A DNA stretch of 64,000 nt, taken from Dehalococcoidia bacterium (GTDB lineage Bacteria > Chloroflexota > Dehalococcoidia > Lucifugimonadales > Australimonadaceae). Shown piece after piece: positions 4,318 through 37,284 of the stretch. The stretch covers positions 1,754,737-1,818,736 of the forward strand of contig OZ252105.1 of NCBI GenBank assembly GCA_965248455.1, read 5' to 3'. Both the position numbers and the translations under genes were made by a program. The notes under the pieces were generated by a model. It was not told the DNA's origin. It saw only the letters and a list, made by a program, of their open reading frames with translations, and made no database searches. The first letter of the stretch is position 1, and each line of letters starts with the position of its first letter.

Positions 4318-4530
4318 ACTCCTGCCCCCTGCGCTGTGCCCTGACTTCGCCTTCTAGTCCGGGTTGCGGCGTGGAAGCATGCTCGCCGTCCAAAGCTTGG
4401 CCGTGATGCGCAGCTTCTCCCCGGAGGAGAGCCGCACGCGCTCGCGGTAGACATCGAAGCCTCGCTGTTCCATGCGGTCGAGCAGCCGGCTGTAGAGGCC
4501 ATGGAGGATCGCCGAGCACGCGCGCGACCG
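4318..4530. repeat. Direct repeat, left copy (hpnD 3' end plus 36 bp of downstream flank)
   Basis: 213 bp aligning without indels to 6946..7158 (offset 2628 bp), with 9 mismatches by manual alignment. Confidence 0.95.
4354..4530 (-). pseudogene. Orphan 3' fragment of a presqualene diphosphate synthase (hpnD-like) gene
   Basis: ORF 4354..4662 ends ...RSRACSAILHGLYSRLLDRMEQRGFDVYRERVRLSSGEKLRITAKLWTASMLPRRNPD. This is nearly identical to the C-terminus of the intact gene at 6982..7860. The upstream part of the ORF is unrelated. Confidence 0.85.
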
Positions 4531-6945: not shown

Positions 6946-7158
6946 ACTCCTGCCCCCTGCGCTGCGCCCTGATTGCGCCTTCTAGTCCGGGTTGCGGCGT
7001 GGAAGCAGGCTCGCCGTCCAAAGCTTGGCCGTGATGCGCAGCTTCTCCCCGGAGGAGAGCCGCACGCGCTCGCGGTAGACGTCGAATCCCCGCTGTTCCA
7101 TGCGGTCGAGCAACCGGCTGTAGAGGCCATGGAGAATCGCCGAGCACGCGCGCGACCG
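6946..7158. repeat. Direct repeat, right copy (inside and just downstream of intact hpnD)
   Basis: Pairs with 4318..4530. Confidence 0.95.
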
Positions 7159-8878: not shown

Positions 8879-9922
8879 TCACTTATCACGCGTGACGAAA
8901 TAATCCGCCATCGCCTGGATGCTCTCCTTCGCCTCGGACGGGAGCTGAAGCCCTTCGAGCGCATCCATCGCGCCGGAGGCTTGGCTGACCGCGGTCTGCT
9001 GCACAACCGCCTCGCTGTCGAGTTCAGCGAGCAAATCGAGAACGCGCTCGATGTCGTCGCCCGCCACCTCCTCCGCGGCGTAAGCGGTTCGGAGCCATTC
9101 GCGCTGCGCATCGTTCGCGCGTTGGAACAGGTGGACGATGGGCATGCTCTTCTTCTTGCGCTTGATATCGGAGCCGACCGGCTTACCCGTCGCCGCCGGG
9201 TCGCCCCAGATGCCGAGCAGGTCGTCGCGCACCTGGAATGCAAGCCCGAGCTTACGTCCGCACGCGCCGAACGCCTCCGCCGTCCTGGCGTCGCCGGTGG
9301 CCACCAGCGAGCCGAGGTACATGGCGCAGTCGATGAGCGCGCCCGTCTTGCGCGAGATCATGTCAAGGTAGGCGTCAGTCGTGACGTCGTCGGAGTCCTC
9401 GAAGGACATGTCCAGGTACTGGCCTTCGATCATCTCGACGTAGCGCGATGTCAGCGCGAGGGACGCCGCCATGACGGTGGACGCCGCAAGGCCGGTCTCC
9501 GACAGCGCCAGGAGCGTCTGATCGGCCACGACGCGCATCGCGTTGCCGGCGGCAATAGCCTCGTGGACGCCGAACACCGTCCACGCCGTCGACCGGCCTC
9601 GCCTTGTCGTATCCCTATCCTGGATATCGTCGTGGAGCAGTGAGAAGTTGTGGATAAGCTCCAGCGCCGCAGCGGCGGGGAGAGCGTCATGCCAGTCGCC
9701 GCCGTTGATCTCGCAGGACGCAAGCACGAGCACGGGGCGCAGCCCTTTGCCCGCGTCCTCGGCGGCGGGGTTGCCGTCGCGATCCTGCCACCCAAGGTGG
9801 TAGCGCAGCATGCTGAAGAGGCCGGTCTCGGAGTCGGGCACCGAGCGTCGAACCTGCTGCCTGATGTCAGCGGTGTACCGCTCGACGAGAGCTGCAACCC
9901 GACGTTCGGAGGAGACGGTCAA
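8879..9922 (-). CDS. Polyprenyl diphosphate synthase (FPP/GGPP synthase family)
   Basis: 347 aa. First aspartate-rich motif LLHDDIQDRD and second DDLLGIWGD. Confidence 0.9.
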   Translation of the reverse strand: MTVSSERRVAALVERYTADIRQQVRRSVPDSETGLFSMLRYHLGWQDRDGNPAAEDAGKGLRPVLVLASCEINGGDWHDALPAAAALELIHNFSLLHDDIQDRDTTRRGRSTAWTVFGVHEAIAAGNAMRVVADQTLLALSETGLAASTVMAASLALTSRYVEMIEGQYLDMSFEDSDDVTTDAYLDMISRKTGALIDCAMYLGSLVATGDARTAEAFGACGRKLGLAFQVRDDLLGIWGDPAATGKPVGSDIKRKKKSMPIVHLFQRANDAQREWLRTAYAAEEVAGDDIERVLDLLAELDSEAVVQQTAVSQASGAMDALEGLQLPSEAKESIQAMADYFVTRDK

Positions 9923-12297: not shown

Positions 12298-12433
12298 GCG
12301 ACAAACGCCCATTGCGCCGACGCCGCGCCAGCCCATACAGTGGTTGGGCGCGTCGTTACGACGAAATCGCCCCGTCGTTCCCGCGAAGGCGGGAACCTCG
12401 CCCTCGGCCCCATCGCCCGCATAGACGAGAGGC
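12298..12433 (+). repeat. A-H element copy (promoter-like module A plus hairpin H) feeding into the tRNA-like array
   Basis: GCGACAAACGCCCATTGCGCCGACGCCGCGCCAGCCCATACAGTGG, with TTGCGC at 12312-12317, a 17-18 bp spacer and ATACAG/TACAGT at 12335-12341. Hairpin GTTCCCGC-GAAG-GCGGGAAC at 12377-12396. Ends in GACGAGAGG, where the iterons start in other copies. Confidence 0.8.
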
Positions 12434-12436
12434 TGT

Positions 12437-12508
12437 GGGCATTAGCTCAGTCAGTTAGAGCGTCGCGTCCACATCGCGGAAGCCAGAGGTTCGAGTCCCT
12501 ACCGCCCA
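12437..12508 (+). pseudogene. Degenerate tRNA-like sequence (anticodon-loop TCCACAT, Val-CAC-like)
   Basis: The D-arm GCTC-AGTCAGTTA-GAGC is intact. Defects: a 1-nt deletion in the 5' acceptor strand, acceptor mismatches, C at position 33, and the same aberrant T-arm as the other copies. No TATACT promoter in front. Confidence 0.4.
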
Positions 12509-12692
12509 TCACCGCTATCGGCCCAGGACTCCTGACCCCTGCGCTGCGGTTCAATTCCGCCTTCGAGTGCAACAACGGGACTCCGGCAGCGACGTACCAG
12601 CCTGAGCCGAAGCGAAGGTCAGCGGCTCTTCTCCCTCCGAACATCACGGGGCACGGAGGCCGAGCCTCAGCAGACATGCGGACGTGAACCGC

Positions 12693-12722
12693 TGGACTGC
12701 CCTGCGAGGCCAACCCTATACT
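12693..12722 (+). promoter_or_regulatory. Putative promoter of tRNA-like copy 2 (TGGACT-N18-TATACT)
   Basis: TATACT at 12717-12722, 11 nt upstream of the tRNA-like 5' end. The same module precedes copy 3. Confidence 0.35.
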
Positions 12723-12733
12723 CGAAAGACTGT

Positions 12734-12806
12734 GTGCGATTGGCCCAGCTGGCTAGAGCGTCGCGTTCACATCGCGGAGGCCAGAGGTTCGAGTCCCTAT
12801 CGCCCA
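12734..12806 (+). tRNA. tRNA-like gene, anticodon CAC (Val), non-canonical T-arm
   Basis: Manual cloverleaf. Acceptor GTGCGAT/ATCGCCC pairs 6 of 7 (U2-C71 mismatch). U8, A14, G18G19 and A21 are present. Anticodon stem TCGCG/CGCGG with loop TTCACAT. The T-loop TTCGAGT has only 4 nt (CCCT) on the 3' side of the stem, which requires a bulged A51. Confidence 0.5.
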
Positions 12807-12990
12807 TCACCGCTATCGGCTCAGGGCACCTGACCCCTGCGCTACGGTTCAATCGTGCCTTCGAGTGCAACGAGGGGATCCCGACAGCGACGTACCGTCC
12901 TGAGCCGAAGCGAAGGTCAGCGGCTCTTCTCCCTCCGAACATCACGGGGCACGGAGGCCAAGCCTCAACAGACATGTGGACGTGAACCGC

Positions 12991-13020
12991 TGGACTGCCT
13001 CGCGGGGCCAACCCTATACT
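12991..13020 (+). promoter_or_regulatory. Putative promoter of tRNA-like copy 3 (TGGACT-N18-TATACT)
   Basis: TGGACT at 12991-12996 and TATACT at 13015-13020. Confidence 0.35.
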
Positions 13021-13031
13021 CGAAAGACTGT

Positions 13032-13107
13032 GCGCGGTTGGTTCAGTTGGTTAGAGCGTCGCGTTCATATCGCGGAGGTCGGCGGTTCGAGTCCCTACCG
13101 CCCGCCA
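13032..13107 (+). tRNA. tRNA-like gene, anticodon CAT (Met/Ile2-type), encoded CCA, non-canonical T-arm
   Basis: Acceptor GCGCGGT/ACCGCCC pairs 6 of 7 (C2-C71). Anticodon loop TTCATAT. T-arm GGCGG-TTCGAGT-CCCT again needs a bulge (C51). G73 is followed by CCA. Confidence 0.5.
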
Positions 13108-14019: not shown

Positions 14020-14129
14020 GAACGGTACGCGGTGGAGCGAGCGATACCCAACCTCCACCCGATGCGCTGCTGGCACGGATCCCAGCCTCCCGCCCTCGCG
14101 GACGCGACGGGTTCGCCGAGCGCAATCCT

Positions 14130-14488
14130 GCGACAAACGCCCATTGCGCCGTCGCCGCGCCAGCCCTTACAGTGGTCGTATGCGTCGTTACGACGAAGGC
14201 ATATCGTCGTTCCCGCGAAGGCGGGGACCTCGCATCCCTGCCCCACGCAGACGAGAGGAATGAGACTGAATGAAACTAAATGAGACTGTTTTAAAAGTTC
14301 GTCACTCCTGGCCACTCGTGATGAAGCCAACCAAGGCCACAGCGAGGCCACGCTGGCTCAGCGCGTACGAGTGAACGGAGACCCAAACGAGACCACCCCG
14401 GCCTCATTTTCAGCCTCCCGACTAGGAGTGAATGGGGACAGATAGAGCCAAATGAGTCCTTGATTTGAAATTTACCCCTGAGGCGGCC
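14130..14488 (+). repeat. Complete A-H-B-C element (copy R1)
   Basis: Module A is 14130-14200, with TTGCGC at 14144-14149, N17, and TTACAG at 14167-14172. H hairpin at 14209-14228. Iterons AATGAGACTG / AATGAAACTA / AATGAGACTG at 14259-14288. TTTTAAAAGTTCGTCACTCCTGGCCACTC at 14289-14317. Module C runs to GAGGCGGCC at 14488. Confidence 0.9.
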
Positions 14489-14544
14489 CCCTACAGGTCC
14501 TTTCTCCCTCGGAGGACGGCTAAGATGAGAGTGAAGCCCCCAGC

Positions 14545-14610
14545 GCGTCTACGAGAGGAATGATCGGAAATGAGAGGAAATGAGAGGAAATTAAAAGTTT
14601 GCCACTCCTG
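14545..14610 (+). repeat. Solo B module 38 bp upstream of the enolase-superfamily gene
   Basis: CTACGAGAGG, then iterons AATGATCGGA / AATGAGAGGA / AATGAGAGGA (14559-14588), then AATTAAAAGTTTGCCACTCCTG. Confidence 0.85.
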
Positions 14611-14647
14611 AAAGCCCCGGAAGCGCTATCTCCGAAGGAACACCACC

Positions 14648-15745
14648 ATGAAGATCACCCACGTCGAACCGATCCTAGTCGCCCTCCCCTATGAGGACGG
14701 CGGCCCTGAACGAGAGACGACGCCCGGCCACAGCAGCGAGACCGTCCTTTCGCTGTTCGTCAAGGTCGAGACGGACGAGGGCGTCACCGGTTGGGGAGAG
14801 GCCTTCAGCTTCGCCACCGTGCCGGTCACCATCCCCGCCATCGCCGATGCGGTCGGACCGCTCGCCATCGGGCAGGACCCAACCGACATCGAAGCGGTCG
14901 CCGAGGACCTGCGTCGGCGCTATCAGAACATGATGCGCGGAGGGCCGGCGCGCTTCGCGCTCTCCGCCATCGAGATCGCCATGTGGGACATCAAGGGCAA
15001 GGTCGAGGGCAAACCCATCTGGCAACTCCTGGGAGGCGCGCCTAGGGAAAGCATCGAGGCCTACGCGAGTATGTTCCGCTACCACGAACCGGCGGTCGTC
15101 AAACAGATCGCCGCATCCGCCTGGCAGCGCGGCTACAGGAAGATCAAGCTCCACGAGCGAACCGTCGAAGCAGTCGCCGCCGCCCGAGATGCCCTCGGAT
15201 CCGGCGTGCCGCTCATGGTCGACGTCAACTGCGCCTGGTACCCCGACGAAGCCATCTCAATGGCGCAGCAGATGCAGCCCTACGACATCGCCTGGCTCGA
15301 AGAGCCGGTCTCGCCCCCCGACGACTACGACGGCTTGGCGCGAGTCCGTCGCGAGGGCGGAGTCCCGATCGCCAACGGTGAGAACATCGGCAATCCCTAC
15401 GATGTCAGATGGATGGCTGCCCGGGGCGCAGTCGATATCGTGCAGCCCTCCGTGGTCAAGCACGGCGGCATCAGCGACATCATGCGCATGGTCGAGATCG
15501 CCGAAAGCGCAGGCATGCGCGCCGTCCCCCATTGCCCCTTTGTCGGCCCCGGCCTGCTGGCGACCATCCACATCATCGCCGCGATGAAGACCGAGACGCC
15601 CTGCGAACACCGCTACTGCGACCTCAAAGCAAGCCCGCTCGGCGATGCCGTCGCCGCCGTGAACGGTCGTCTCAGCGTGCCGCAGGGCCCCGGCCTCGGC
15701 GTCGACCCGGATCTCGCCATCCTGGAACGCTACCGGGTTCGATAG
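14648..15745 (+). CDS. Enolase-superfamily enzyme (mandelate racemase/muconate lactonizing enzyme family)
   Basis: 365 aa. KIKLH, the metal ligands DVN...EEP...ENI, and an N-terminal capping domain layout. Confidence 0.85.
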   Translation: MKITHVEPILVALPYEDGGPERETTPGHSSETVLSLFVKVETDEGVTGWGEAFSFATVPVTIPAIADAVGPLAIGQDPTDIEAVAEDLRRRYQNMMRGGPARFALSAIEIAMWDIKGKVEGKPIWQLLGGAPRESIEAYASMFRYHEPAVVKQIAASAWQRGYRKIKLHERTVEAVAAARDALGSGVPLMVDVNCAWYPDEAISMAQQMQPYDIAWLEEPVSPPDDYDGLARVRREGGVPIANGENIGNPYDVRWMAARGAVDIVQPSVVKHGGISDIMRMVEIAESAGMRAVPHCPFVGPGLLATIHIIAAMKTETPCEHRYCDLKASPLGDAVAAVNGRLSVPQGPGLGVDPDLAILERYRVR

Positions 15746-17659: not shown

Positions 17660-17727
17660 GATTCCCCTCCCAGGACGACTGCCTCGCCATGACTCGATGT
17701 CAGCCGATGATACCTCACGACGCGGGG
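17652..17727 (-). promoter_or_regulatory. Conserved 76-nt leader/RBS/start module, copy 1 (amidohydrolase)
   Basis: Minus-sense sequence CCCCGCGTCGTGAGGTATCATC...CGAGTCATGGCGAGGCAGTCGTCCTGGGAGGGGAATCGTGAGAGC. It is duplicated at 20619..20694. Confidence 0.6.
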
Positions 17728-17784
17728 CTTGGAGCGTATGGAACGGGTTCACACGGTTTTCAGGAGTGGCACGTCGCCCTGACG

Positions 17785-20580
17785 CTAGCGGACGGCGGCA
17801 ATCGTTTCGGGGATGGGTATCTCGATGCCGTACTCGCTTTCCGTTGCGCGGACATCGTAGGAGGAGCAGGCGTCCCGGTTGCCGACGTCGAACTGCCAGC
17901 GCATCTCGTACTGCGAGACCTCGTAGGTTCGTGTGCTGAGCGTGATGCTGATGCGCAGGGTCACGCTGCGCGCCCAGGAGGGCTGTAGGGCTTCCACGCC
18001 CGTGAGCGTTACCTTCAGCGTGGCCTCGCCGGGGGAAGGCCGCGTTAGCTCGACGGAGCCGGGGTCCGCGTAGCTGATGATGTTGACGAGCATATCGGCG
18101 GGGTTGGTGAAACCGTTCCGCCAGTTCGTAACGTCGGCGATAGCGCTGATGCTCGTCCCTCGCCATTCACTCGCGCGCTGCCGCCAGTAGCGCCATCCCA
18201 CACTTTCGGAGTAGCGGAAGATGAAACCCCGGGAGTTGCTGTCGAGACGAACAACGGCAGGGAAGCCGTAGCCGAGGTCCCCGATGGCATACCGGCCGTT
18301 GAAGGTGGCGTCGCGGCAGCCGCTTTGTCCTCCCCATCCGCCTCTGACGCGGAAGCGGGCGGAATCCGCCTCGAGCAGCGCAGCGTAGGCGCGTTCGGCG
18401 AGCCGGACGCCGTTCTCCTCAGCGACGGTGGGCGACGAGCCGCGCAGATTGTCGGCGAACACGATCAGCTCCTCGACCTCCTCCATCGTCATGCCGGGGC
18501 GGACGAGCGGGTGCGCGTGAAGGCGGAACAGCGCCTCGTCCAGCTCGCTCATCTCTGGCAGGCGCAGTGCGCTGTGAATGGACATCACACTGATGGGGGC
18601 AGGCCGGTGGTGTACTGCAGCGAGGGCATGGAGCGCCTCGTGGAGGGTTACGTGCCGAACCTCTGCGCGGAGTTCATCGGAGCCTCCCGTGCGGGTATCC
18701 AGCCACACGCTGATGGAGGCGTCGGTGACGGCGCCGTCCACGTAGAAGTCCGGCCCTCCGCACCCTGCCGCGTCCTGGCAGTATTCCTTGAACCCGATAT
18801 CCGCACTCCGGGTGGCCGGCACGCCAACGTACGCCTTGAGTTGCGCCTGGTCTCGTGTGTCCACCCACTCGAAATCGAGGTTCAGCAAGGGGGAGAGGCT
18901 ATCGAGCATCTCCTCCAGCACGCGGATGTACAGCGAATCGCCGGAGGGGTCTGCCCAGACCGTCACCGGCCCTTCCTGATCCCACTTGCGGATAGTTGGC
19001 GACGTCCACCCCCCACAGCCGCCGAGGAAGTCGTTGTCCAGAGTAGCTTCCCAATCGGGCCTGTCGCTGAAGCACTCCCAGACATCCCGATCGACGCCCA
19101 GGATGCGCTCCGGCACAGCAATGGGGGCCGATTCCGCTGCGCCATCGGCGAGGCTGGCGCGCAGGTCCGCGCCCATCGGCGCACGCACGCGCAGCACGTG
19201 CTCCGAAGGTCCGAATCCGTCCAGCAACCCCACGCTCTTCACCGCGCCGCCGCACCCACTCACCGGTTCGCCACTGTCTCCATGACAGCTCACGGCGATG
19301 TCATAGCTCTCCGTTGCAGGGCGGTAGCCGTCGTTGTTCAACGATAGCGCGAGTTCGACCTCCACCGTGCCGTCCGACCAGTAGCCGAGCACCTCCGCCG
19401 TCGCATCGAGCGCGAGTTCGACCGGCAGCTTGTCCAGTACGCGGATGACGTTCTGCGCGGTGTTGCGTTCGCCCCAACGGTAGCCGTCGTCCGGCGCTCC
19501 GGCGTAGGCGGTAACGAGCGTCTCGCCTTGCGGTAGGACGAGCATCAGGGTGGCATTCGCGCTGCTGCCTACTGGGATAGACCCTAGCGTTGCGGAGGAG
19601 GCGCAGACAGGAGGGGCGTCGTTGCAGAGCACGCCGACGGTCAGGGGGCCGCTTGGCCCGGCGCCCTCGTTCGCGACTCTCAGGGGTATCTCCACGATGC
19701 CGTCGCCGTCGCGATCGTAGCGGACTGTGCGCGCTGCACCGATGGCGAGGACGAGACCCACATATTCCACGAATACCGGCGCTGTGATGGCGTTGTCGTC
19801 GGTCAAGGCTTCAAGGCTTGTGGTCGCGGCGGAGAGCGTGATGTCGTACGCGCCGGTAGGGATGGGCAGGAGGAGCGTCGTGGTCTCGCTCGCGCCGGGT
19901 TCGATGCGCTCGATGATGACGGCTCGTTCGGCGCTGCCGGAGACGCCATCGTCATCGGGCAGCGCCGTCCATGCGGCGGAGAGCGCAACATCCTCTGCCG
20001 CGATGCTGCCCGCGTTGGTGACGCGCGCCTCGAACGCCATCGCACCGTCACCCGCAACGGCGTACTCCGTCAGCTCAAGCGCGAGGTCGGCTGCGTGAAC
20101 GCTCACGAACTCCGAACGCTCCGCGCCGCCGACGCTGAACGTGATGCGGTGCTCCCCAGGAGCGAGCGCCCGCACGATGGTGAGCGTTGCCGTTTCGCCT
20201 CCGGCCAGGCCGCTGATCATCCCGTCGTCCTGGAACGCTCCTCCGTCGACCGCGACACGGACGGCGACATCCTGTCCCGTCGCCTCGCCCTCGTTCGTCA
20301 CTGTAAGCGAGAGTTCGACCTGCACGGAGCCATCGCCCGCTCCGGTGAACTCAACGCCGTCGTAGGTGGCGCGATACGAGGCAGGCAGCGGCGTAGGCTT
20401 GGGCGTGGGCGATGGGGTCGGGGTTGGGGTTGGGGCCGACGTAGGCATCGAGGTAGCCGTCGGGGTAACCGGTGGGGTCGGCGTCGGGGCCGCGTTGCAC
20501 GCCAGCAGCGTCGCGACGGAGAGGATGCACGTCAGCGTAACGGCTGGGCGCCAGGCGGAGCGCACGAACACTCTACGCAA
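17785..20580 (-). CDS. Large secreted lipoprotein with Pro/Thr linker, CARDB-like repeats and a C-terminal HExxH zinc-metallopeptidase-like region
   Basis: 931 aa. Signal with lipobox LLAC. PTPTPPVTPTATSMPTSAPTPTPTPSPTPKPTP linker. Repeated ...VTNEG/VANEG...TL modules. HVTLHEALHAL motif. TTG start as given by the track. Confidence 0.7.
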   Translation of the reverse strand: MRRVFVRSAWRPAVTLTCILSVATLLACNAAPTPTPPVTPTATSMPTSAPTPTPTPSPTPKPTPLPASYRATYDGVEFTGAGDGSVQVELSLTVTNEGEATGQDVAVRVAVDGGAFQDDGMISGLAGGETATLTIVRALAPGEHRITFSVGGAERSEFVSVHAADLALELTEYAVAGDGAMAFEARVTNAGSIAAEDVALSAAWTALPDDDGVSGSAERAVIIERIEPGASETTTLLLPIPTGAYDITLSAATTSLEALTDDNAITAPVFVEYVGLVLAIGAARTVRYDRDGDGIVEIPLRVANEGAGPSGPLTVGVLCNDAPPVCASSATLGSIPVGSSANATLMLVLPQGETLVTAYAGAPDDGYRWGERNTAQNVIRVLDKLPVELALDATAEVLGYWSDGTVEVELALSLNNDGYRPATESYDIAVSCHGDSGEPVSGCGGAVKSVGLLDGFGPSEHVLRVRAPMGADLRASLADGAAESAPIAVPERILGVDRDVWECFSDRPDWEATLDNDFLGGCGGWTSPTIRKWDQEGPVTVWADPSGDSLYIRVLEEMLDSLSPLLNLDFEWVDTRDQAQLKAYVGVPATRSADIGFKEYCQDAAGCGGPDFYVDGAVTDASISVWLDTRTGGSDELRAEVRHVTLHEALHALAAVHHRPAPISVMSIHSALRLPEMSELDEALFRLHAHPLVRPGMTMEEVEELIVFADNLRGSSPTVAEENGVRLAERAYAALLEADSARFRVRGGWGGQSGCRDATFNGRYAIGDLGYGFPAVVRLDSNSRGFIFRYSESVGWRYWRQRASEWRGTSISAIADVTNWRNGFTNPADMLVNIISYADPGSVELTRPSPGEATLKVTLTGVEALQPSWARSVTLRISITLSTRTYEVSQYEMRWQFDVGNRDACSSYDVRATESEYGIEIPIPETIAAVR

Positions 20581-20818: not shown

Positions 20819-21199
20819 GGCCGCCTCAGGAGTGAAATTTCAAATAGGGGACTCATTTGGCTCTATTTGGCTCCATTCACTCCTAGCCGGGAGGCTGAAA
20901 ATGAGGCCGGGGTGGTCTCGTTCTGCTTTCCGGTCACTCGTACGCGCTGAGCCAGCGTGGCCTCGCTGTGGCCTCGTTTGGCCTCGGTTACGGATCCGTA
21001 GGCGGGGCTGGGAGTGGCCAAGAGTGGCGAAACTTTTAAAACGGTCTCATTTAGTCTCATTCAGTCTCATTCCTCTCGTCTACGCGGGCCAAGGATGCGA
21101 GGTTCCTGTCTTCGCGGGAACGACGAGGGGCCTTCGCCGTAACGACGCACACAACCACTGTAAGGGCTGGCGCGGCGACGGCGCAATGGGCAATTGTCG
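20819..21199 (-). repeat. Complete A-H-B-C element (copy R2), inverted relative to R1
   Basis: On the plus strand the order is C (20819-20995), B core GAGTGGCCAAGAGTGGCGAAACTTTTAAAA, iterons 21042-21071 (reverse complement AATGAGACTG / AATGAGACTA / AATGAGACCG), H at about 21095-21125, then A to 21199. Reverse complement of TTACAG at 21158-21163 and of TTGCGC at 21181-21186. Confidence 0.9.
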
Positions 21200-21380: not shown

Positions 21381-22643
21381 CTAGTCGTGGCGGCCCAGTA
21401 GGCGGGATAGCTCCGCCATGGCGGGGCTGCCGGCGGATGCGGCGGACGGCATACTCTCGTATCGTTCCAGCAATGCCGACTCTGAAAACTGCTGTGGCCA
21501 GTCCAGGTTAACGGCGGTCCATTCCTCAGTGCGCTTTACGGCAGACAGGTTGAGCAACTCGACCATATCCCGCACCATCGCACGGTCGGGGTGCTTGAGA
21601 TCTCTGTAATGTACGTAGTTTCGTGTGTAGAGGTCGCGAAGGCTGAGTTCCCCTGCATCCAACAGGAGGTCGAGAATCCGCAGTTGCCGTTCGGCGAGCG
21701 CCCTGCGCCTGCTGTTGCGTAGCTTCCCGAACAGCGACCGTGCGAACTCGCGGTAGAGCACCCGCTTCTGATGATTGACGATCTGCGCGACGAGCGCGTT
21801 GCAGCTCTCTGCGACGGCTGGCAATGCGAACAGCAGGAACGGGGTGAGGTCGTGCTCATTCCGGCGAGACTCGTACAGCGCCGCCCGGTACTCTTCTGCG
21901 TGCTCGTAGTAGTAGTTGGAGAGGCTGACCATGACCATCTCGTTGACGTGGGCCTCTCGCAGCATGAGGGCTTCCAGCGCGCGGGCGGTGCGCCCGTTGC
22001 CGTCGCCGAAAGGATGCATCGCACCGATATGGTAGTGGGCGGCCATCGCCTGGATGATGCGGTCATGCTGCGGGAACTCCGTGGTGATTGCATCCGCCAG
22101 CCTGTTGAAAGCGGCTCGGCAACCATCGCCTCCTGCGATGCCCCGACAGCGCGGCATCCCAAAGATGACGTTGTCTCCGGCGGATCGTGTTGCGCCGGGT
22201 TCGCAACGGTCGTCGTCACAGCCGGTGACGATGCGCCGGTGAATGTCCAGAATCAACTCGGCAGTAACCGGCTGGTCGGTTTGCAGTGAACGCAACCAGC
22301 GGTACGTGGCGTTGGCTGATCGCAACTGCCGTTGGGAGTGCGTCAGATCGGTACGCGCAGAAGCGTCGGGAGCAAAGGCTTCGTCCCGTTCACGCTGGGT
22401 AAACTCAGCCCCCTCTATGCGTGCAGTGCCGACTGCCTCCAGCCGCAGTTGCTCCTCGTGGGCCTGTTCGATCCACTGGGGCAGGTAGGGCATCCGGTTC
22501 AGGACACCGGCTGCGGTTCTGGCTTCGATCAGCGGACCCGCAACGGCCGCAATGTCGTAGCGCACCCACTGCCGCGGGACGACGTAGTGGCTCACAGGCT
22601 GCGTAGTCATGTACGGGTCGCTTCGCCGCATTTCAAAGTTCAT
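21381..22643 (-). CDS. Fic family protein (AMPylase-type; class II with internal inhibitory helix)
   Basis: 420 aa. Fic motif HPFGDGNGRTARAL. N-terminal TARIEGAEF matches the (S/T)xxxE(G/N) inhibitory motif. TATAAT and AGGAG lie upstream at about 22655-22675. Confidence 0.9.
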   Translation of the reverse strand: MNFEMRRSDPYMTTQPVSHYVVPRQWVRYDIAAVAGPLIEARTAAGVLNRMPYLPQWIEQAHEEQLRLEAVGTARIEGAEFTQRERDEAFAPDASARTDLTHSQRQLRSANATYRWLRSLQTDQPVTAELILDIHRRIVTGCDDDRCEPGATRSAGDNVIFGMPRCRGIAGGDGCRAAFNRLADAITTEFPQHDRIIQAMAAHYHIGAMHPFGDGNGRTARALEALMLREAHVNEMVMVSLSNYYYEHAEEYRAALYESRRNEHDLTPFLLFALPAVAESCNALVAQIVNHQKRVLYREFARSLFGKLRNSRRRALAERQLRILDLLLDAGELSLRDLYTRNYVHYRDLKHPDRAMVRDMVELLNLSAVKRTEEWTAVNLDWPQQFSESALLERYESMPSAASAGSPAMAELSRLLGRHD

Positions 22644-22805
22644 TTCGTGTTTCTACTCCTAAATTATACCGGTTTCCCAATTCCATTTCAAGTTCGTTTC
22701 AGATTGGTTTCCATGCTGCTCGTCAGCGCCCCGTAGCCTCCACGCCTGCACCATCCCACTCGATGAGTGACGGGCGCCCCTACACCCACCATCCGTGTCT
22801 CGAAT

Positions 22806-22960
22806 GCGACAACAGCCTATTGCGCCGTTGACACTTCAACCTTTACCATCATTTGCATACGTCAGCCTGCCGCGCGGGCGGAACCTCGCATCACGAGGAA
22901 ACGGAACGAAATGGAACTGAATGGAACCAATTTAACAGTTTGCCACTCCTACGCACTCCT
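22806..22960 (+). repeat. A-H-B element copy (divergent)
   Basis: GCGACAACAGCCTATTGCGCC (TTGCGC at 22820-22825)...TTTACCA. Hairpin-like CCTGCCGCGCGGGCGGAACCTCGC. Iterons AACGGAACGA / AATGGAACTG / AATGGAACCA at 22900-22929. ATTTAACAGTTTGCCACTCC. Confidence 0.8.
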
Positions 22961-23181
22961 GAGAGTCTCACCACGCGTGGAATCGCATAGCAATGAGCAA
23001 GAACGAGCACGAGCTTCAGCAGGCGCGGGAATGGCCCCTTGTCTCTATCGTGTCCCTTCCAGAACGGATCCGGGTGCGGCACGAAACATCGGGCGCGTCG
23101 ACCTCAGCGAGGATACCCTGCGCGAGATGCGAGACGCAGGGCGACCGTGATCGTCGTCAGCCCGCGCGACGGGAGCGACCC

Positions 23182-26109
23182 CTAGCGCAGCGCTTCCGCC
23201 AGGTACTCGGCGACGTGGCGAGGGGTCTTGGACGTGAAGTGGCCTATCTGCTGGCGACAGGAGATGCCCGAGACGGCGACCGGCCAGCCGCGCTTCTCCT
23301 CCGCTTCGATCGCGGGGAAGAGCTTGAGCGCGCCCATCGCGTGAGAGATGTCGTAGTGCTCCTTCTCGAACCCGAACGTGCCCGCCATGCCGCAGCACGC
23401 CGAGTCGATCAGCTCCGGCTCGTAGCCCGCGACGCGCAACGCCTCCAGCGTCGGCCCTGCGCCCACAATCGCCTTCTGGTGGCAGTGCCCGTGCACCTGC
23501 ACCGAGGCCTTCCCGCCCTCCGCGAACGCCGCCTGCACCGCCTCCGGCTCGTCCTTGGCCAGCTGCGTGATCAGCTCGTCGAGCATCAGCGCCTGGCTCG
23601 CCACAGACTTTGACGCATCGTCGCGCAGCAACTCCGGGTACTCGTCGCGCAGGGTCAGGAGGCATGACGGCTCCGTGCCGACGATGAGCGTGCCGCGCTC
23701 CGCATACGGCGCGAGTACGTCCACGTTCGCCCGGGCCCAGCCCTTCGCCTTCGCGAGCTGGCCCTTGGAGATAAGCGGCCTACCACAGCATCCGCGCTGC
23801 GATTCGACGGTCACGTTGTAGCCCAGCGCTTCCAGGACGCGGACGGCAGCGTGGCCGACCTCCGGGTGCATGTACTCGGTGAACGTATCGTTGAAATAGA
23901 GGACGTCGCCGCGCGTCCCTTTCACCGACGGAGCGCGCCGCGAGAACAGCGAGGAGAACCTGCGACGCGCGAACCGTGGCAGCGGCCGCTTACGCGATAT
24001 GCCGAGCACGCGCTCAGTGATGAGCTTGGTGGCCGGCAGGCTGCCCATGAAGTTCGTCACCGGCGCGACCGCCTGCCCTATGCGGCTGAGGCGGGCGACC
24101 TCGCCGAACAGCCTGGCACGCAGCGGCACGCCGTGCTTCTCGTAGTACTTGCTGAGCACCTCGGACTTCAGCTTTGCCATGTCCACATTGGAGGGGCACT
24201 CCGCCTTGCAGGCCTTACACTCCACGCAGAGGTCCATCGTCTCGTAGAGCCGCTTGCCGGTGAGTTCCTCGGCGGGCAGCTTGCCGCTGATCACCATGCG
24301 CAGCATCGTGGCGCGGGCGCGGGTCGAGTGCTCCTCCTCCCGCGTCGCCATGAACGAGGGGCACATCCCCCCGTCGAGCTTGCGGCATGCGCCCTGGCTG
24401 TTGCACATCTCCACGTGGCCCGCGAATCCGCCGTCCTCGCTGAAGTCGAGGTACGTCGAAACGTCGAGCACCTCGACGCCGGGGCCGATGCGCAGATTCT
24501 CGCGGATGCCGGGCGTCTCGATGATCTTGCCCGGGTTCATGATCGAGTCAGGGTCGAACGTCTGCTTGAGCTGCTTGAACGCCTGGTACAGCTCGGAGCC
24601 GAACATCTTCTCCGTGAACACGCCGCGGACGATGCCGTCGCCGTGCTCGCCGGTGAGGCTGCCGCCGAACTCCAGCACGAGGTCGGAGATCTCCTCGGCG
24701 ATAGCCGCCATCTTCTCGACGCCCTCATGCTGCTTCATGTTGACGACGGGGCGGATATGCAGGCAGCCGGTGGAAGCATGGCCGTAGTAGGCCGCCACGG
24801 TGTCATACCGCGCGACGACCTCCTCGAACCGGCGCACGTACTCCGGCAGTTGCTCAGGGGAGACTGCCGTGTCCTCGACGTACGGGAGCGGCTTGGCGTC
24901 GCCCTTGAGGGCCATCGCCAGCCCAAGCCCGGCCTCGCGGAGCGCGTACCACCGCCGCTGCTGGTCGGGGTCGTTCGTGATCATCGTGGCGTAGCCGAGG
25001 CGGCGGCGCTCCATGTCCGCCTTGAGCGCTTCGAGTTTCGCCTGGACTTCACGGGGGGAATCACCGTAGAACTCGACGAACAGCAGCTCGCGGGGGTCTC
25101 CGATGAACTGGTCGAGCATGTGGCGGTAGCCGGGGTTCACCTTGCAGTTGTCGATGATCATGTGGCCGACGAGCTCGACGGCGGAAGGGCTGTGCTCGAG
25201 TATCGGCACCGACGCCTCCATACATTCGATGAGGTCGGTGAAGTGCAGCACGCCGAGTCCCTTATGCTGCGGCAACGGCACGAGGTTCACCCGCGCCTCC
25301 GTAACGGCGACCAGCGTCCCTTCCGAGCCGACGACCGCGCGGGTGAGGTTCATGGGGCCGCTGCCGGTGAAGTCGTCGAGGTTGTAGCCCATAACGCGGC
25401 GCAGGATGCGCGGGAAGCGTTGGGCAATCTCGTCGGCGTGCTCCCACGCCAGGCGGCGCGTCTCGCGGTAGATCGCGCCCTCCAGGTCGTTCTGCGCAAG
25501 CTTGTCCTCCAGCCCCTCGCCTACCGTGGGAGCGAAGTGGACGCGGCTGCCGTCCGACAGGATGGCGTCGACCTCCAGGATGTGGTCGAGCGTCTTGCCG
25601 TAGATCACGGAGTGCGGCCCGCAGGAGTTGTTGCCGATGCCTCCGCCGACAGTGGCGCGGGCGCTGGTGACGGGATCCGGGGCGTACATCAGCCCGTGCT
25701 GGCGCACAGCGGCGGAGAGGTGGTTGTTGACGATGCCGGGCTGCACCCGCGCCCACCGTTCCTCCGGCGAGACCTCCAGGACGTTGCGCATGTACTTCGA
25801 GAAGTCCATGACGATGGCGTGGTTGGTGGTTTGCCCCGCGAGCGCGGTGCCGCCGCCGCGAGGCATGACAGGCACGCCGTGCTCGCGCGCGACACGGATG
25901 GTGGCCTCCACGTCATCGGCGCTCCGAGGCACCACGGCGCCCACGGGCATCATCTGGTACATGGAGGCGTCCGTGGAGTACATGAGGCGGTTGTAGCGGT
26001 CCATCCGAATCTCGCCCGCGATCTGCCCGCGCAGCTTGTCGGCTATCGCGCTGACCTCGGACGCGGAGATGTTGGCGGCTTTACGCGCAGTCTCGTACAG
26101 CAGTGGCAT
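23182..26109 (-). CDS. FAD-binding oxidase fused to an Fe-S/CCG domain (GlcD-GlcF-type fusion; D-lactate/glycolate oxidase-like)
   Basis: 975 aa. N-terminal FAD_binding_4-type region (PRGGGTALAGQ). Central 2x[4Fe-4S] motifs (CNSQGACRK..., CVECKACKAECPS). C-terminal cysteine-rich CCG repeats (GCCG, ACCGMAG). Confidence 0.9.
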   Translation of the reverse strand: MPLLYETARKAANISASEVSAIADKLRGQIAGEIRMDRYNRLMYSTDASMYQMMPVGAVVPRSADDVEATIRVAREHGVPVMPRGGGTALAGQTTNHAIVMDFSKYMRNVLEVSPEERWARVQPGIVNNHLSAAVRQHGLMYAPDPVTSARATVGGGIGNNSCGPHSVIYGKTLDHILEVDAILSDGSRVHFAPTVGEGLEDKLAQNDLEGAIYRETRRLAWEHADEIAQRFPRILRRVMGYNLDDFTGSGPMNLTRAVVGSEGTLVAVTEARVNLVPLPQHKGLGVLHFTDLIECMEASVPILEHSPSAVELVGHMIIDNCKVNPGYRHMLDQFIGDPRELLFVEFYGDSPREVQAKLEALKADMERRRLGYATMITNDPDQQRRWYALREAGLGLAMALKGDAKPLPYVEDTAVSPEQLPEYVRRFEEVVARYDTVAAYYGHASTGCLHIRPVVNMKQHEGVEKMAAIAEEISDLVLEFGGSLTGEHGDGIVRGVFTEKMFGSELYQAFKQLKQTFDPDSIMNPGKIIETPGIRENLRIGPGVEVLDVSTYLDFSEDGGFAGHVEMCNSQGACRKLDGGMCPSFMATREEEHSTRARATMLRMVISGKLPAEELTGKRLYETMDLCVECKACKAECPSNVDMAKLKSEVLSKYYEKHGVPLRARLFGEVARLSRIGQAVAPVTNFMGSLPATKLITERVLGISRKRPLPRFARRRFSSLFSRRAPSVKGTRGDVLYFNDTFTEYMHPEVGHAAVRVLEALGYNVTVESQRGCCGRPLISKGQLAKAKGWARANVDVLAPYAERGTLIVGTEPSCLLTLRDEYPELLRDDASKSVASQALMLDELITQLAKDEPEAVQAAFAEGGKASVQVHGHCHQKAIVGAGPTLEALRVAGYEPELIDSACCGMAGTFGFEKEHYDISHAMGALKLFPAIEAEEKRGWPVAVSGISCRQQIGHFTSKTPRHVAEYLAEALR

Positions 26110-26226
26110 GCGACCATCCCTCTGGGGAAGTTATCCGGCCCGGAGCGTACCGGGCGCCCCTTCATATTACGACACCACCGCCATGTGGGGCTTGAATGTA
26201 TCTGCACAGACTGGCAGGCTATAGCC

Positions 26227-27135
26227 ATGGCACAAGCGGCGCTGGTTCCCCAATGGCCCCTTGACTCTGAAAACCCCCTCTTCGGAGGGCTACATACGAT
26301 CTACCACGCCGATGCGTTCGAGTGGCTGGAAGCGGCGCCACCCCATTCCATCCACGCAGTGGTAACGGATCCACCCTACGGGCTGGTCGAGTATACGAAC
26401 GCGCAGCTGGCCAAGCTCAGAGCTGGCTCCGGCGGCGTGTGGCGCATGCCTCCGGTACTTGACGGCTACAGGCGCAAACCAGTGCCGCGCTTCACGGTGT
26501 TGACCGAGGCCGATAAACAGAACCTACGAGGATTCTTCACGAGGCTAGCCTCTTCCCTGCTTCGCGTGCTGACACCCGGAGCACACGTTTTCATCGCTAC
26601 CAACCCACTGCTCTCTTACCTCGTTTACGAGCCGTTCATCAACGCCGGTTTCGAGAAGCGCGGGGAGATTATCCGGACGGTAACCACACTGCGCGGAGGC
26701 GACAGGCCAAAGAACGCGCACGACGAGTTCACGGACATCACCGTGATGCCACGATCCTCCTGGGAGCCTTGGGGCCTCTTTCGCAAACCCATAGAGGCTC
26801 GCGTACAAGACAACCTGAGGAAATGGAAAACGGGAGCGCTCCGCCGCCCATCCCCCAGTGAACCGTTCCGAGACCTCATCCAATCTTCTCCCACGCCGGC
26901 GCGGGAACGGGCGATAGCGCCCCATCCCTCATTGAAACCCCAGCATTTCATCCGGCAGATCACGCATGCATCCCTTCCCCTTGGCGAAGGGGTCATCCTC
27001 GACCCTTTCATGGGCGCCGGTTCGACAATCGCAGCCGCCGACGCCTTGGGACTGCACAGCATTGGATTGGAAATAAACGAGGATTTCTTCAACTTGGCCA
27101 GCAGGGCGATTCCTGCCCTAGGTGCTCTGGCCTAA
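26227..27135 (+). CDS. DNA methyltransferase, beta-class N6-A/N4-C (PF01555-like)
   Basis: This is the in-frame tail of the artefactual 1094-aa ORF 23851..27135, with the true start at MAQAALVPQW. Motif IV VVTDPPYG comes before motif I ILDPFMGAGST. Confidence 0.85.
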   Translation: MAQAALVPQWPLDSENPLFGGLHTIYHADAFEWLEAAPPHSIHAVVTDPPYGLVEYTNAQLAKLRAGSGGVWRMPPVLDGYRRKPVPRFTVLTEADKQNLRGFFTRLASSLLRVLTPGAHVFIATNPLLSYLVYEPFINAGFEKRGEIIRTVTTLRGGDRPKNAHDEFTDITVMPRSSWEPWGLFRKPIEARVQDNLRKWKTGALRRPSPSEPFRDLIQSSPTPARERAIAPHPSLKPQHFIRQITHASLPLGEGVILDPFMGAGSTIAAADALGLHSIGLEINEDFFNLASRAIPALGALA

Positions 27136-30914: not shown

Positions 30915-30969
30915 GGTACGAGCATGCGTTCAGAGACGACATTCCGGCAGTGGGCAGGGTCCGTAGACG

Positions 30970-31345
30970 TGGCCAGGCGTGTGAGGGAGTGAAACCTCTG
31001 TCTCATTTTGATTCATTCTGATTCATTTTTTCTTATCCGCAAGGCGAGGAGCGGGACGGTTCGCAAGCGGCCCTCCGCCCAGGCAGAGGGCCTCCCAACC
31101 AAAGGGATGCGTCGTTCCCGCGCAGGCGGGAACGACGGAGGGCGTTCTGCTCAGCCTCTCGTTCATTTCTGTTGCTATCCCGCTTTTGGTACGGCTGTCA
31201 GGAATGCGTAGGAGTCGCAAACTTTTTATTTGGTTCCATTTGCTTCCATTTCGTCCCATTTCTACCGTATGCACGGGGCCTGCACGGGGAATAACTAACG
31301 TATGCAAACAATGTAGGGGTTGGCGCGACGATGGGGCAATGGGCA
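30970..31345 (-). repeat. Stacked element copies: B (30970-31030), H (31111-31136), B (31211-31265), A (31285-31345)
   Basis: Reverse-complement iterons AATGAATCAG / AATGAATCAA / AATGAGACAG at 30998-31027. Hairpin GTCGTTCCCGC-GCAG-GCGGGAACGAC. Reverse-complement iterons AATGGGACGA / AATGGAAGCA / AATGGAACCA at 31231-31260, next to AATAAAAAGTTTGCGACTCC. Module A reads GCGACAGATGCCCATTGCCCC...CCTACATTG. Confidence 0.8.
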
Positions 31346-31388
31346 TCTGTCGCAGATACGTTGAGGCCGTGATTACAGACAGCCCTTC

Positions 31389-35955: not shown

Positions 35956-37284
35956 CTACGCGGCGCTCTTCACGTTGAACTGCAGCGCGGTGTGCGTGGC
36001 GGAGCGCGGGCTGCCGGTGCGCTCCGCGAAAGCGATGCGCATGCTGACGACCATGACGTTCTTGCGCCGCTGGATGTCCCGCTCCGTCTCGATCAGCAGC
36101 TCACGCTTGACGCCCTTGCGCCACTGCGTCCTGTTCACGAGCAGCAACCGCCCTCTGTCCGCGACGTTGCCTGCCGCGGTGACCTTGCCGTCGCTATCCG
36201 CCGGGCTCAGCTGCTCTGACACGATGAGCGGCACGCCCTCTATCGCGCCCAACTGGCCGGTGAGCAACGTCGCGTGCGGACCCAGCTTGTCGACCGTCTG
36301 GAAGCTCTCTACGGCCTGCACCGCGACGTAGGTGCCGATGTCCGTTACGAACGCCAACTCGGAGGGGCGGAGTCCGTACTTGCCCATCTTGCGTCGCAGC
36401 GCGTTGAACATGGACGCGGCGGGCGCGGCGTTGTAGTCGCTCCCCATCGCGGTGTTGTTCGCCAGGGGCTGGTGGATCAGGCCATCGAACCCTATCAGGT
36501 AGTGCGCTTTGCCCGCGGTGGACGGGGCCAACGCCGCACCGTCGTGGTTGATGTTGTTGGTCGTTGTCGTGTCGGCGTTGAGCAGAACGTCGTCGAGCAC
36601 CTGCGCGGCGTTCCGCACGAGGGTCGAGCGCACCTCCGCCATCATAGCGATGACGGCGTCCTCTTCCAGCTCGTAGGCCCATGGCACCATGCCGACCAGT
36701 TCATACGCCTTGAGCGTCTGCTTGGCCGTCGTCAGGTCGGTGGACGCGGCAACCGTATTGGTGGCGCCCGGGTACCAGTTGACGTCGCCCAGCTCGAGCG
36801 GCACGTCGAACGGGTTGGACGGCATGGTGACGGTCTCGAACAGAGAGGCCACGGCAGCCTCGGTATTCACGTCGGCCCACAGCTGGCGCGCCTCCTCCTG
36901 CGGCACGAGTTCGTCTCCCGCCCCGGCAGTCGTCGAATCCATCGCCTTGGCGACGCTCTCGCCCCAGGCACGGAGCATACGCGGGTCGTAGTCCTGCGGA
37001 CGCGCCTGCTGCGCCGCGAACAGGCTCCTGGCGATGGCGAGGTCCACCAGGTCGAATCCGTCCAGCTTGCCGCCGTGCACCCGGACGCGGTCGTTGGTGG
37101 TTCGGCTCAGAACGGCGTCGCGCCGCGAGGAGCGATCACGCTCCAGCGCACGGCGCACCTCTCCCGCGAGCCGCTCCTGCTCCTCACGCATGAGGGCCAA
37201 CTCCTTCGTGATGGGGTTGAGGCGTTCGCGGACGAACTCTTGGGTCTGCACGATCTCACGCTGTATCTCTTCCACTTCTGACAT
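35956..37284 (-). CDS. HK97-family phage major capsid protein
   Basis: 442 aa. N-terminal coiled-coil delta-like region (MSEVEEIQREIVQTQEFVRERL...). C-terminal ...LLLVNRTQWRKGVKRELLIETERDIQRRKNVMVVSMRIAF is typical of HK97-fold capsid proteins. Confidence 0.85.
   Translation of the reverse strand: MSEVEEIQREIVQTQEFVRERLNPITKELALMREEQERLAGEVRRALERDRSSRRDAVLSRTTNDRVRVHGGKLDGFDLVDLAIARSLFAAQQARPQDYDPRMLRAWGESVAKAMDSTTAGAGDELVPQEEARQLWADVNTEAAVASLFETVTMPSNPFDVPLELGDVNWYPGATNTVAASTDLTTAKQTLKAYELVGMVPWAYELEEDAVIAMMAEVRSTLVRNAAQVLDDVLLNADTTTTNNINHDGAALAPSTAGKAHYLIGFDGLIHQPLANNTAMGSDYNAAPAASMFNALRRKMGKYGLRPSELAFVTDIGTYVAVQAVESFQTVDKLGPHATLLTGQLGAIEGVPLIVSEQLSPADSDGKVTAAGNVADRGRLLLVNRTQWRKGVKRELLIETERDIQRRKNVMVVSMRIAFAERTGSPRSATHTALQFNVKSAA

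Follow-up and report, generated by a model that had tools for sequence, protein, structure and literature searches.

The window analysed here is a 64,000-nucleotide (64-kb) stretch of the genome of a Dehalococcoidia bacterium (Chloroflexota), with ~64% G+C, four tRNAs and one 23S rRNA gene without a 16S or 5S gene. Between its genes lie ten loci that, in the original prediction, shared an ordered set of modules named A, H, B and C. As described below, these loci form a genuine, ordered and modular intergenic family whose modules have been swapped or lost. Positions without a locus label refer to the window, and labels beginning with L denote other genomic loci that were compared with it.

The repeat family in the 64-kb window

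The copy at 14130-14488 was split into its four modules, and each was iterated as an nhmmer profile. All ten predicted loci were matched by the module profiles, with E-values from 1e-8 down to 1e-40; the weakest profile match was B at 30969 (E 0.004). Matches to A were located at 12299, 14131, 21133(-), 22807, 31297(-), 50835 and 62675(-), and matches to H at 12373, 14205, 21088(-), 31110, 62646(-) and 62770(-). Those to B were at 14256, 14557, 21012(-), 22898, 30969(-), 31202(-), 37658(-) and 62331(-), and those to C at 14323, 20843(-), 50955 and 62183(-). A pairwise repeat search of the window joined the same loci through long pairs of high identity: 14131-14299 with 21031-21199 (169 nt, inverted, 90%), 14323-14473 with 20835-20985 (151 nt, inverted, 90%) and 12298-12401 with 14130-14233 (88%). 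More pairs tie in 31100-31350, 37665-37706, 50835-51034 and 62183-62809. The copies in the window, labelled W1 to W8, and two associated features are as follows.

12298-12433, + strand: W1, an A box, a half-H and H, ending at GACGAGAGG (nhmmer A 4.7e-15, H 7.4e-9)
14130-14488, + strand: W2, a full A-H-B-C unit with A at 14131-14197, H at 14205-14243, B at 14256-14317 and C at 14323-14465 plus an extension (nhmmer E 2e-18 to 6e-39)
14500-14610, + strand: a hairpin module of extra type (CCTTTCTCCCTCGGAGG...ATGAGAGTGAA) followed by a B on its own (nhmmer B 9.8e-13; sequence reading)
17725-17791, - strand: a 66-bp scar with a B remnant (TTTTCAGGAGTGGCA) (strain comparison)
20819-21199, - strand: W3, a full A-H-B-C unit (pairwise repeats and nhmmer)
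22806-22960, + strand: W4, A, a degenerate H and B with iterons AATGGAAC (nhmmer A 1.5e-10, B 9.2e-14)
30969-31352, - strand: W5, A at 31297-31352, B at 31202-31262, H at 31110-31137 and a second-type iteron module at 30969-31027 (nhmmer, pattern scan and reading)
37654-37757, - strand: W6, a variant form of H, CGTCATTCCAGCGGAGGCTGGAATCC, the motif GGGTGAA and a B that has two AATGAGCGG iterons (nhmmer B 1.8e-12; reading)
50832-51084, + strand: W7, A and C without B (nhmmer A 2.3e-11, C 3.9e-27)
62178-62809, - strand: W8, H-A-H, a 277-nt cassette (62373-62649), B, C and a degenerate H (nhmmer)

W1 abuts tRNA-Val (12436), W2 is 90% identical to its inverted copy W3, and W8 lies between a cytochrome c gene and dxr. 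The H of W5 is a perfect palindrome. The solo B at 14500-14610 has the iterons AATGAGAGG and TTAAAAGTTTGCCACTCCTG, and the start codon of an MR_MLE gene lies 38 nt further on. An H had also been predicted in W4; a degenerate H can be read there, but the profile did not match it.

The canonical module order is [H]-A-H-(optional insert)-B-C-[H]. In the alignment, A (~67 nt) reads CGACAA-n2-GCCCATTGCGCC, a variable stretch of 16-17 nt and then TACATTG, giving a bipartite motif of CGACAA..TTGCGCC-N16/17-TACATTG in which both hexamer-like blocks are invariant while the spacer varies; half of an H forms its tail. B (63 nt) consists of three iterons of 10 bp, each with AATG and six more bases, and then a near-invariant TTAAAAGTT(T)CGCCACTCCTGGCCACTC, called B-constant here. 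The variable cores of the iterons (CAAC, AGAC, GAAC, AGCG and AGAG) are largely uniform inside a copy and differ among copies. C (~143 nt; core sequence CGGAGTGCCAAACGAGGCCAC) has GGCCA words every ~10-11 nt and holds a GAGGCC-loop-GGCCTC hairpin followed by ATTT, the invariant CTAGGAGT and, at its 3' end, three more iterons. Among paralogs, B-constant (30 nt) diverges by 10% and the remaining parts by 22-27%.

The four predicted modules were confirmed, but more types exist. One is a hairpin CCCTTCTCCC..GGGAGAAGG with ATGAGGGTGAA, and another is a second iteron module with three copies of AATGAATCA plus GGGGTTGACCCC; in total there are ~5 module families in a mostly conserved order. A solitary hairpin of an extra module type, CTTCTCCCCTCAAGGGAGAA, was also seen at 44119-44139 between two convergent genes.

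As predicted, the elements have neither terminal inverted repeats nor a spacer-repeat structure: the pairwise repeat search found no inverted repeat connecting the ends of a unit, and the flanks of A differ among copies without a target duplication. They have no coding capacity either, since single-base indels among the copies exclude a conserved reading frame; a mini-open reading frame of 7-9 codons in the iterons is a consequence of the AATGA words. By eye, B contains no convincing alternative sigma, sigma-54, IHF or DnaA box.

Distribution of the modules and classification of the hairpin

The DXR protein of the window is 80% identical to that of a 'Chloroflexi bacterium' metagenome-assembled genome (MAG), 72% to Dehalococcoidia and 68% to SAR202 proteins. 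Ten 21-kb loci of the same lineage were retrieved from ENA metagenomes through the transposase of an IS110-family insertion sequence (IS), and three more through near-identical MR_MLE homologues. Modules of the family were present on 12 of these 13 loci (ten contigs), L006 being the exception, and mostly at sites outside the window. The window and the first ten loci, two of which are duplicates, gave 23 A, 34 H, 23 B and 18 C matches in ~270 kb, a density of about one locus per 8-10 kb. Since the matches are spread over further loci of the lineage, the family is genome-wide and is neither confined to the window nor the product of a single segmental duplication.

Outside the lineage, only H was found. 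A 25-base A-box pattern had no match in 185,579 species-representative genomes (GTDB), B and C patterns had none in JGI metagenomes, C patterns had none in IMG/VR, and the whole 14130-14610 stretch had none among plasmids or phages. The H pattern occurred at >117 loci among the matches listed (Massilia, Duganella, Cupriavidus and ~20 Dehalococcoidia/Chloroflexota MAGs), and A, B and C were absent from all of these. They were also absent from 21 kb each of syntenic relatives (DXR 75-80% or MR_MLE 89% identical). A, B and C are lineage-specific and were seen in no other lineage searched. H-type hairpins were present in the relatives found through DXR, some of them in tandem arrays of ATTCGTCATTCCCGCGTAGGCGGGAATC whose period is 41 or 59 bp; arrays in relatives read ATTCCCGCG.AGGCGGGAAT. 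Relatives found through MR_MLE (L134-L136) had no H matches. A literature search found nothing on the hairpin sequence or on repeats of Chloroflexi or SAR202.

The hairpin itself is written CGTC-GTTCCCGC-GAAG-GCGGGAAC (loop also GCAG): the CGTC tag is unpaired, the stem has 8 bp and the loop 4 nt. In the alignment, 21 of 26 distinct H copies start with CGTCG, and the tag is also present in the relatives. TTCCC-N8-GGGAA occurs exactly three times in the window against 0.03 expected, and the stem shows compensatory substitutions, such as GCTCCCGT/ACGGGAGC in L001. In the lineage, the first stem pair is mostly G-C followed by T-A (GTTCCC...GGGAAC), and the tail is CCT or CTC rather than CCA. The form ATTCCC...GGGAAT is found in the variant at 37654-37757 and in the relatives L077, L129 and L130. 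The H copies are single, arranged head-to-tail and oriented like their modules.

This geometry is that of the CGTC-1 family of repetitive extragenic palindromes (REPs), which is defined by the same tag, stem length and loop length (a 20-bp unit) and which, in Neisseria, was equated with dRS3, ATTCCC-N8-GGGAAT (Di Nocera et al. 2013, PMC3733652). CGTC repeats were known from five phyla in that 2013 survey, Chloroflexi not among them, and were reported without a dedicated transposase or a RAYT association. In CGTC-1 REPs, the stem opens with two A-T pairs and the 3-nt tail is of the CCA type, and the repeats usually form head-to-head dimers between convergent or unidirectional genes, downstream of ORFs (open reading frames; PMC3733652). 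H shares the tag, stem and loop lengths, its extragenic position and high copy number, and no dedicated transposase was seen beside it. It differs in being single and head-to-tail, inside a composite and mostly 5' of genes, as well as in its tail. H is thus a described element type, the CGTC-tagged REP of CGTC-1/dRS3 geometry. The original prediction that the loci match no known element type therefore did not hold for H, but it stood for A, B and C; among described MITEs (miniature inverted-repeat transposable elements), REPs and noncoding RNAs, only the REP match of H was obtained, and Rfam returned nothing for the elements.

The same CGTC-tagged hairpin, CGTC[AG]TTCCCGCG.AGGCGGGAA[CT], forms tandem arrays in Dehalococcoidia other than the present lineage and in Betaproteobacteria, Massilia among them (L077 1124-1680, L130 15626-15772, L089 2165-2540, L053 and L059). 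The identity of the 24-nt CGTC repeat across phyla could reflect ancestry, transfer or convergence.

Insertion, strain variation and mobile elements

The gap between the cytochrome c gene and dxr is 14-21 bp in L128 and L130; in L129, 40 bp separate cdsA from dxr. In the window, the same gap holds the 630-bp W8 element and a 1.2-kb IS. Because the syntenic sites of the relatives are empty, the composite is an insertion. Two genes beside such insertions, 23S and rpsB, kept their own promoters. W7 lies upstream of, and does not replace, the genuine 23S promoter (TTGACA-17-TATACT at 51257-51285, 11/12 consensus), which is kept in L128, a locus without the element. In L005, the TGTGCTACAAT promoter and conserved leader of rpsB are kept downstream of an H-A-H-B-C-H copy. 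A was accordingly ruled out as the promoter of either gene.

Two observations were made beside these promoters. The 23S gene with its own promoter (51257-54613) has no 16S upstream and no 5S detected downstream, and a tRNA-Met (54539) follows directly. The rpsB leader, GCCGTGGGGAACGTCGAGCC..GCGGAAAT.TCT.AGATCGAC.GAAAGGCAGGTCCCATG, follows an extended -10 promoter in four genomes and may be a ribosomal-protein S2 autoregulatory leader.

L005 4560-4670: rpsB leader
L128 5290-5362: rpsB leader
L129 5490-5558: rpsB leader
L130 3300-3376: rpsB leader

The gene maps place approximately half of the copies between divergent genes and no copy between convergent ones. In tandem contexts, ~5 copies are co-oriented with the genes and ~5 are opposed, so there is no orientation bias. 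Co-orientation was dropped as evidence for a promoter, since an element in a divergent region trivially 'points' at a gene. No common function links the neighbouring genes (tRNA, 23S, rpsB, rpsO, dcd, dxr, a capsid gene and an amidohydrolase). Between the window and L131 or L133, orthologous elements are 90-91% identical and C alone 86-87%, compared with 91-93% at third codon positions of adjacent genes. Orthologous copies thus diverge no slower than third codon positions, so there is no purifying selection in place.

The copies vary strongly between strains. At one locus, A units number seven in L131, three in L133, two in L132 and none in the window, where the 66-bp scar lies.

L131 13512-15491: variable array, B-C-B-A and then H-A units repeating every 258 bp (TRF: 4.7 copies; seven A matches)
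L132 13514-14190: variable array
L133 13513-14385: variable array
17725-17791 of the window: the scar at the same site

A Type ISP restriction-modification gene stands at this locus in the other strains and not in the window, together with a Fic gene in L133. The A-H of W1 has orthologs in L131-L133, with strain-dependent DNA beyond it, and W2 is present in L131 and L133 but absent from L132. The interval between W1 and W2 contains a tandem tRNA-Val, tRNA-Val, tRNA-Met array in the window (12436-13106, 298-bp unit), an AAA_15 plus DUF4276 gene pair in L131 and other ORFs in L133, where only the first tRNA of the array was seen to align; in L132, nearly all of it is missing and a tRNA fragment is left. 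The second and third tRNAs of the array have TGGACT-18-TATACT just upstream, while the first (12436) has A-H there instead. L003 and L010 differ by a 7-kb inversion with copies of the family at its bounds. Elements are found at, or adjacent to, the borders of strain-variable cassettes, including the tRNA array, defence genes and the restriction-modification system.

Blocks within the elements have been exchanged as well. W8 and its ortholog L005b are 96-97% identical in A, B-constant and C, yet their iteron blocks differ by 27%: W8 (- strand) has the 277-nt cassette and CAAC-type iterons where L005 has 52 nt (9507-9558) and AGAC-type iterons. The cassette has hairpin-like ends (CCCTTCTCCCTTGAGGG ... 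CCTTGAGGGGAGAAAG), interrupts the right arm of an H hairpin and is also present in a paralog in L009, which the new W8 version resembles. A stands between two H copies, and B plus C (63+143 nt) between two H, in W8, L005a, L005b, L001 and L010b. Mantel correlations with C were 0.54 for B-constant (p=0.002) and 0.37 for A, and the value between A and the iterons was 0.02; the histories of the modules are only loosely coupled.

Two other variable regions were noted in the window. A 213-nt direct repeat (96%) at 4318-4530 and 6946-7158, in a run of squalene/phytoene synthase genes, surrounds a 2.4-kb segment that is missing from L132. Fic-domain, DNA methylase and phage-capsid-family genes at 21381-27135 and 35956-37284, between element copies, may be a prophage remnant or a defence island.

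Two kinds of mobile elements were found at the copies.

60955-62131, - strand: IS110-family IS with its transposase gene at 60972-61931 (Pfam DEDD_Tnp_IS110 and Transposase_20; boundaries from nine copies)
62813-62835, + strand: an unoccupied look-alike of the IS110 target, CCTCTCGAAGT-CT-GAACAGTTAC, beside the 5' H of W8
L008 2937-4337: tyrosine-integrase island inside C
L010 8313-9781: tyrosine-integrase island inside C
L003 1566-2253: tyrosine-integrase island inside C

The prediction that there is no transposase was right for the elements themselves but not for their surroundings, as the IS110 transposase gene adjoins W8. This IS is inserted at CTCATCAACT-CT-GAACAGTTAC, beside the degenerate H that ends W8. 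All nine IS110 copies share exact ends (CT...CT) with the modules outside, and L003 has an empty site, GGGCATTCGCCTCATCAACT-CT-GAACAGTTGC (9300-9345, - strand), orthologous to the occupied site of L010. The target is 22 nt long (CTCAYSAAST-CT-GAACAGTTRC, with the CT core duplicated) and lies beside H-type hairpins; further look-alikes are at ~9331 in L005 and ~8609 in L009. The possibility that the element is the non-coding left end or the bridge RNA of IS110 was ruled out by the exact-ended copies, which exclude the modules, and by the empty site. IS110 adjoins and exploits the family without being among its modules.

The 5' non-coding region of the IS (~61990-61999) contains GAACAGTTGC, the right half of the target, as would be expected of a bridge-RNA guide like that of IS110/IS621. 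A second, different IS110 gene in L003 (16146-17090) has the same GAACAGTTGC stretch and is located between A and B of another copy. The tyrosine-integrase island abuts a truncated C, with homology beginning at CGGAGTGCCAAACGAG. It is polymorphic: the site upstream of rpsB is occupied in L008 and unoccupied in L005. The island sites of L003 and L010 appear to be one locus.

Nature and significance of the family

The original prediction also took the architecture to be unlike that of known repeats. Hairpins and 50-150-bp modules in strain-variable arrays are instead the layout of the intergenic mosaic elements found in Neisseria (NIMEs), in which dRS3 hairpins flank RS repeat units of 50-150 bp (Bentley et al. 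2007, PMC1797815). RS families number >100 there and occur in free order, the arrays were not seen outside Neisseria, and a phage-encoded transposase/recombinase puts filamentous phage into dRS3 (PMC1797815). The likeness extends to the hairpin geometry and nearly to its sequence, (G/A)TTCCC-N8-GGGAA(C/T) after CGTC here and ATTCCC-N8-GGGAAT in dRS3. It also includes the repeat modules of 50-150 bp between hairpins, the syntenic arrays with strain-dependent unit numbers, the other repeats and ISs nested inside, and the association with strain-variable genes. Recombinases visit both systems, an IS110-family enzyme targeting the hairpin neighbourhood here and a phage enzyme targeting dRS3 in Neisseria. 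The present family differs in its host (Chloroflexota/Dehalococcoidia), in having ~5 module families in a largely fixed A-H-B-C order rather than >100 in free order, and in its hairpins, which are mostly single, all in one orientation and G-C at the first stem pair. In addition, IS110 targets 22 nt beside the hairpin instead of the hairpin itself, and A, B and C lack sequence similarity to anything searched.

Other repeats resemble the family less closely. The pneumococcal BOX elements (boxA-boxB-boxC) are ordered modular intergenic repeats with variable or missing modules; like the present elements, they are non-coding and have no transposase of their own. BOX modules are shorter, however, boxA and boxC are partly complementary and form one long stem, and BOX has neither REP hairpin punctuation nor 10-bp iterons and no sequence relationship to the family. 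Correia elements and other MITEs are likewise small, abundant and intergenic, often upstream of genes, and some have promoter-like boxes, but they carry terminal inverted repeats and target-site duplications, neither of which is present at the ends of A-H-B-C.

We consider it probable that the loci are lineage-specific, non-coding, non-autonomous and selfish mosaic repeats, similar to NIMEs and to bacterial interspersed mosaic elements (BIMEs), which serve as a hotspot for recombination and integration. H is the punctuation, with A, B (variable 3 x 10-bp iterons plus the conserved 30-nt part), C and at least two more modules between or beside the hairpins. The comparisons show that the composite came as an addition to intergenic DNA of ancestral type and is found mostly on the promoter side of genes. 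Its units amplify into tandem arrays of strain-dependent length and blocks are traded between paralogous copies; IS110 and the tyrosine-integrase island use the family as a landing pad. Spread and reshuffling may proceed through hairpin-associated recombination, through ordinary homologous recombination or gene conversion, and through unequal crossing-over. The blocks that are conserved, namely the bipartite motif of A and B-constant, would serve proliferation and not the neighbouring genes, since blocky conservation among paralogs without constraint among orthologs fits a need for proliferation better than service to neighbours. Effects on neighbours would be a by-product, for example if A is a weak outward promoter for tRNA-Val (12436), where A-H may have taken over the promoter role.

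Several points weigh against this interpretation. No fresh insertion with clean boundaries, target-site duplication or dedicated enzyme was found, and the mode of spread is one that we infer. The lineage DNA covered ~330 kb, half of it picked via IS110, which makes the copy-number and context statistics rough. The largely fixed module order and the few module families would fit a discrete composite element equally well, and the blocky paralog conservation together with the 10-bp-phased iterons resembles protein-binding sites. The 10-bp iterons with their uniform cores within a copy, plus the conserved 30-nt part of B, are the parts most likely to hide a specific protein partner. Finally, tRNA-Val (12436) lacks the promoter of its sisters and has A-H instead, so that this copy may matter for expression.

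The strongest alternative, which we still regard as unlikely, is that A-H-B-C is a discrete non-autonomous transposable element moved whole in trans, with the A and B blocks as enzyme-binding sites. Candidates for the enzyme are an IS110-type recombinase, the tyrosine integrase, or an HUH/Y1 protein that would work on the H hairpins at the flanks in the way known from IS200/IS605-derived elements and REPINs. Complete copies do share one order and hairpin bounds of the same orientation (H-A-H-B-C-H in L005a, L005b/W8 and L001), B-constant and C co-vary, conservation among paralogs but not orthologs is what a master-copy model expects, and the insertion between the cytochrome c gene and dxr interrupted an otherwise tight operon. 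However, A has a ragged 5' boundary from copy to copy, and neither a target duplication nor a common target motif was seen. No Y1/HUH gene turned up in the ~330 kb of lineage DNA, in which no systematic protein scan was made, and CGTC REPs were reported without a dedicated transposase (PMC3733652). Solo modules and A-H-only arrays exist, the histories of A and the iterons are uncoupled from that of C, and the IS110 target is a separate site rather than an end of the element.

It is rather improbable that a full copy is a small transcription unit. In such a unit, A would be a sigma-70-type promoter (TTGCGC-18-TACATT) and the RNA would consist of the 5' hairpin H, an anti-Shine-Dalgarno-like CACUCCUG repeat from B, and a Shine-Dalgarno-like CUAGGAGU with a GAGGCC..GGCCUC-AUUU hairpin from C; its role would be that of a regulatory or sponge RNA in multiple copies, or of a leader acting in cis. 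The invariant hexamer-like blocks of A around a variable spacer of 16-17 nt would suit a promoter, as would the A-H that tRNA-Val (12436) has where its sisters have TGGACT-18-TATACT. ACTCCTGG of B is complementary over 8 nt to CTAGGAGT of C in 97.5% of cells, every one-sided change keeps wobble pairing on this strand, and some compensatory changes occur in local hairpins. Yet A scores 7/12 against TTGACA/16-18/TATAAT, below the threshold of >=9/12, and was not called by the scan, while the real promoters of the host are canonical (11/12). At the gathering score, Rfam 15 found only rRNA and tRNA in the window; at E<=10, the best hit in 14050-14700 had E=2.9 and 18 bits against a 66-bit threshold, which is no family match. 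RNAalifold on ten B-C copies gave local hairpins only, with a covariation term of +0.6, and a three-helix model built from the B/C pairing was equalled or bettered by 73-196 of 500 column shuffles. A structured RNA was dropped as a candidate since neither approach gave significant covariation, though an RNA structure may exist. In addition, there is no T-rich terminator, A or C is missing from many copies, one strain has seven tandem A units, and C diverges faster than synonymous sites between orthologs.

No more probable is a bolder interpretation, in which the modules are more than debris and are the working parts of a cassette-exchange system in uncultured Chloroflexota. H and the conserved A and B blocks would be recombinase sites, with IS110 and its bridge RNA as the prime suspect, through which DNA between elements (defence genes, restriction-modification genes and tRNA arrays) is moved, amplified and swapped. 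If true, this would be a functional analogue of the role merely hypothesised for neisserial NIMEs, and A would possibly give a captured cassette an outward promoter.

The regulatory or nucleoprotein platform of the original prediction, in which a regulator or nucleoid protein would control adjacent genes by binding to the phased iterons and GGCCA words, is very improbable: the AAATG iterons and GGCCA words do recur at ~10-11-bp spacing, and about half of the copies do lie in divergent, promoter-containing regions with none in convergent ones, but the neighbours are unrelated, relatives run the same genes without the insertions, the 23S and rpsB promoters are intact downstream, presence, copy number (sevenfold A arrays versus none) and iteron sequence vary by strain at one locus, orientation is unbiased in tandem contexts, and orthologs show no constraint.

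The family is not a new regulatory mechanism. It is the NIME pattern in Chloroflexota, in a more ordered form with few modules in a mostly fixed order, and it marks strain-variable spots of the genome. NIME-type mosaics had been thought peculiar to Neisseria and CGTC REPs had been unreported in Chloroflexi; both are now found in a distant, uncultured phylum. The repeats also explain assembly breaks, inversions and cassette turnover in these MAGs, and they offer a second system for asking how transposase-less CGTC REPs spread. The hairpin and its architecture are again accompanied by an IS110-family element and again stand at strain-variable loci. This suggests that a CGTC hairpin with interleaved repeats is, rather than a peculiarity of one lineage, a recurrent, possibly horizontally seeded, way to build recombination hotspots.

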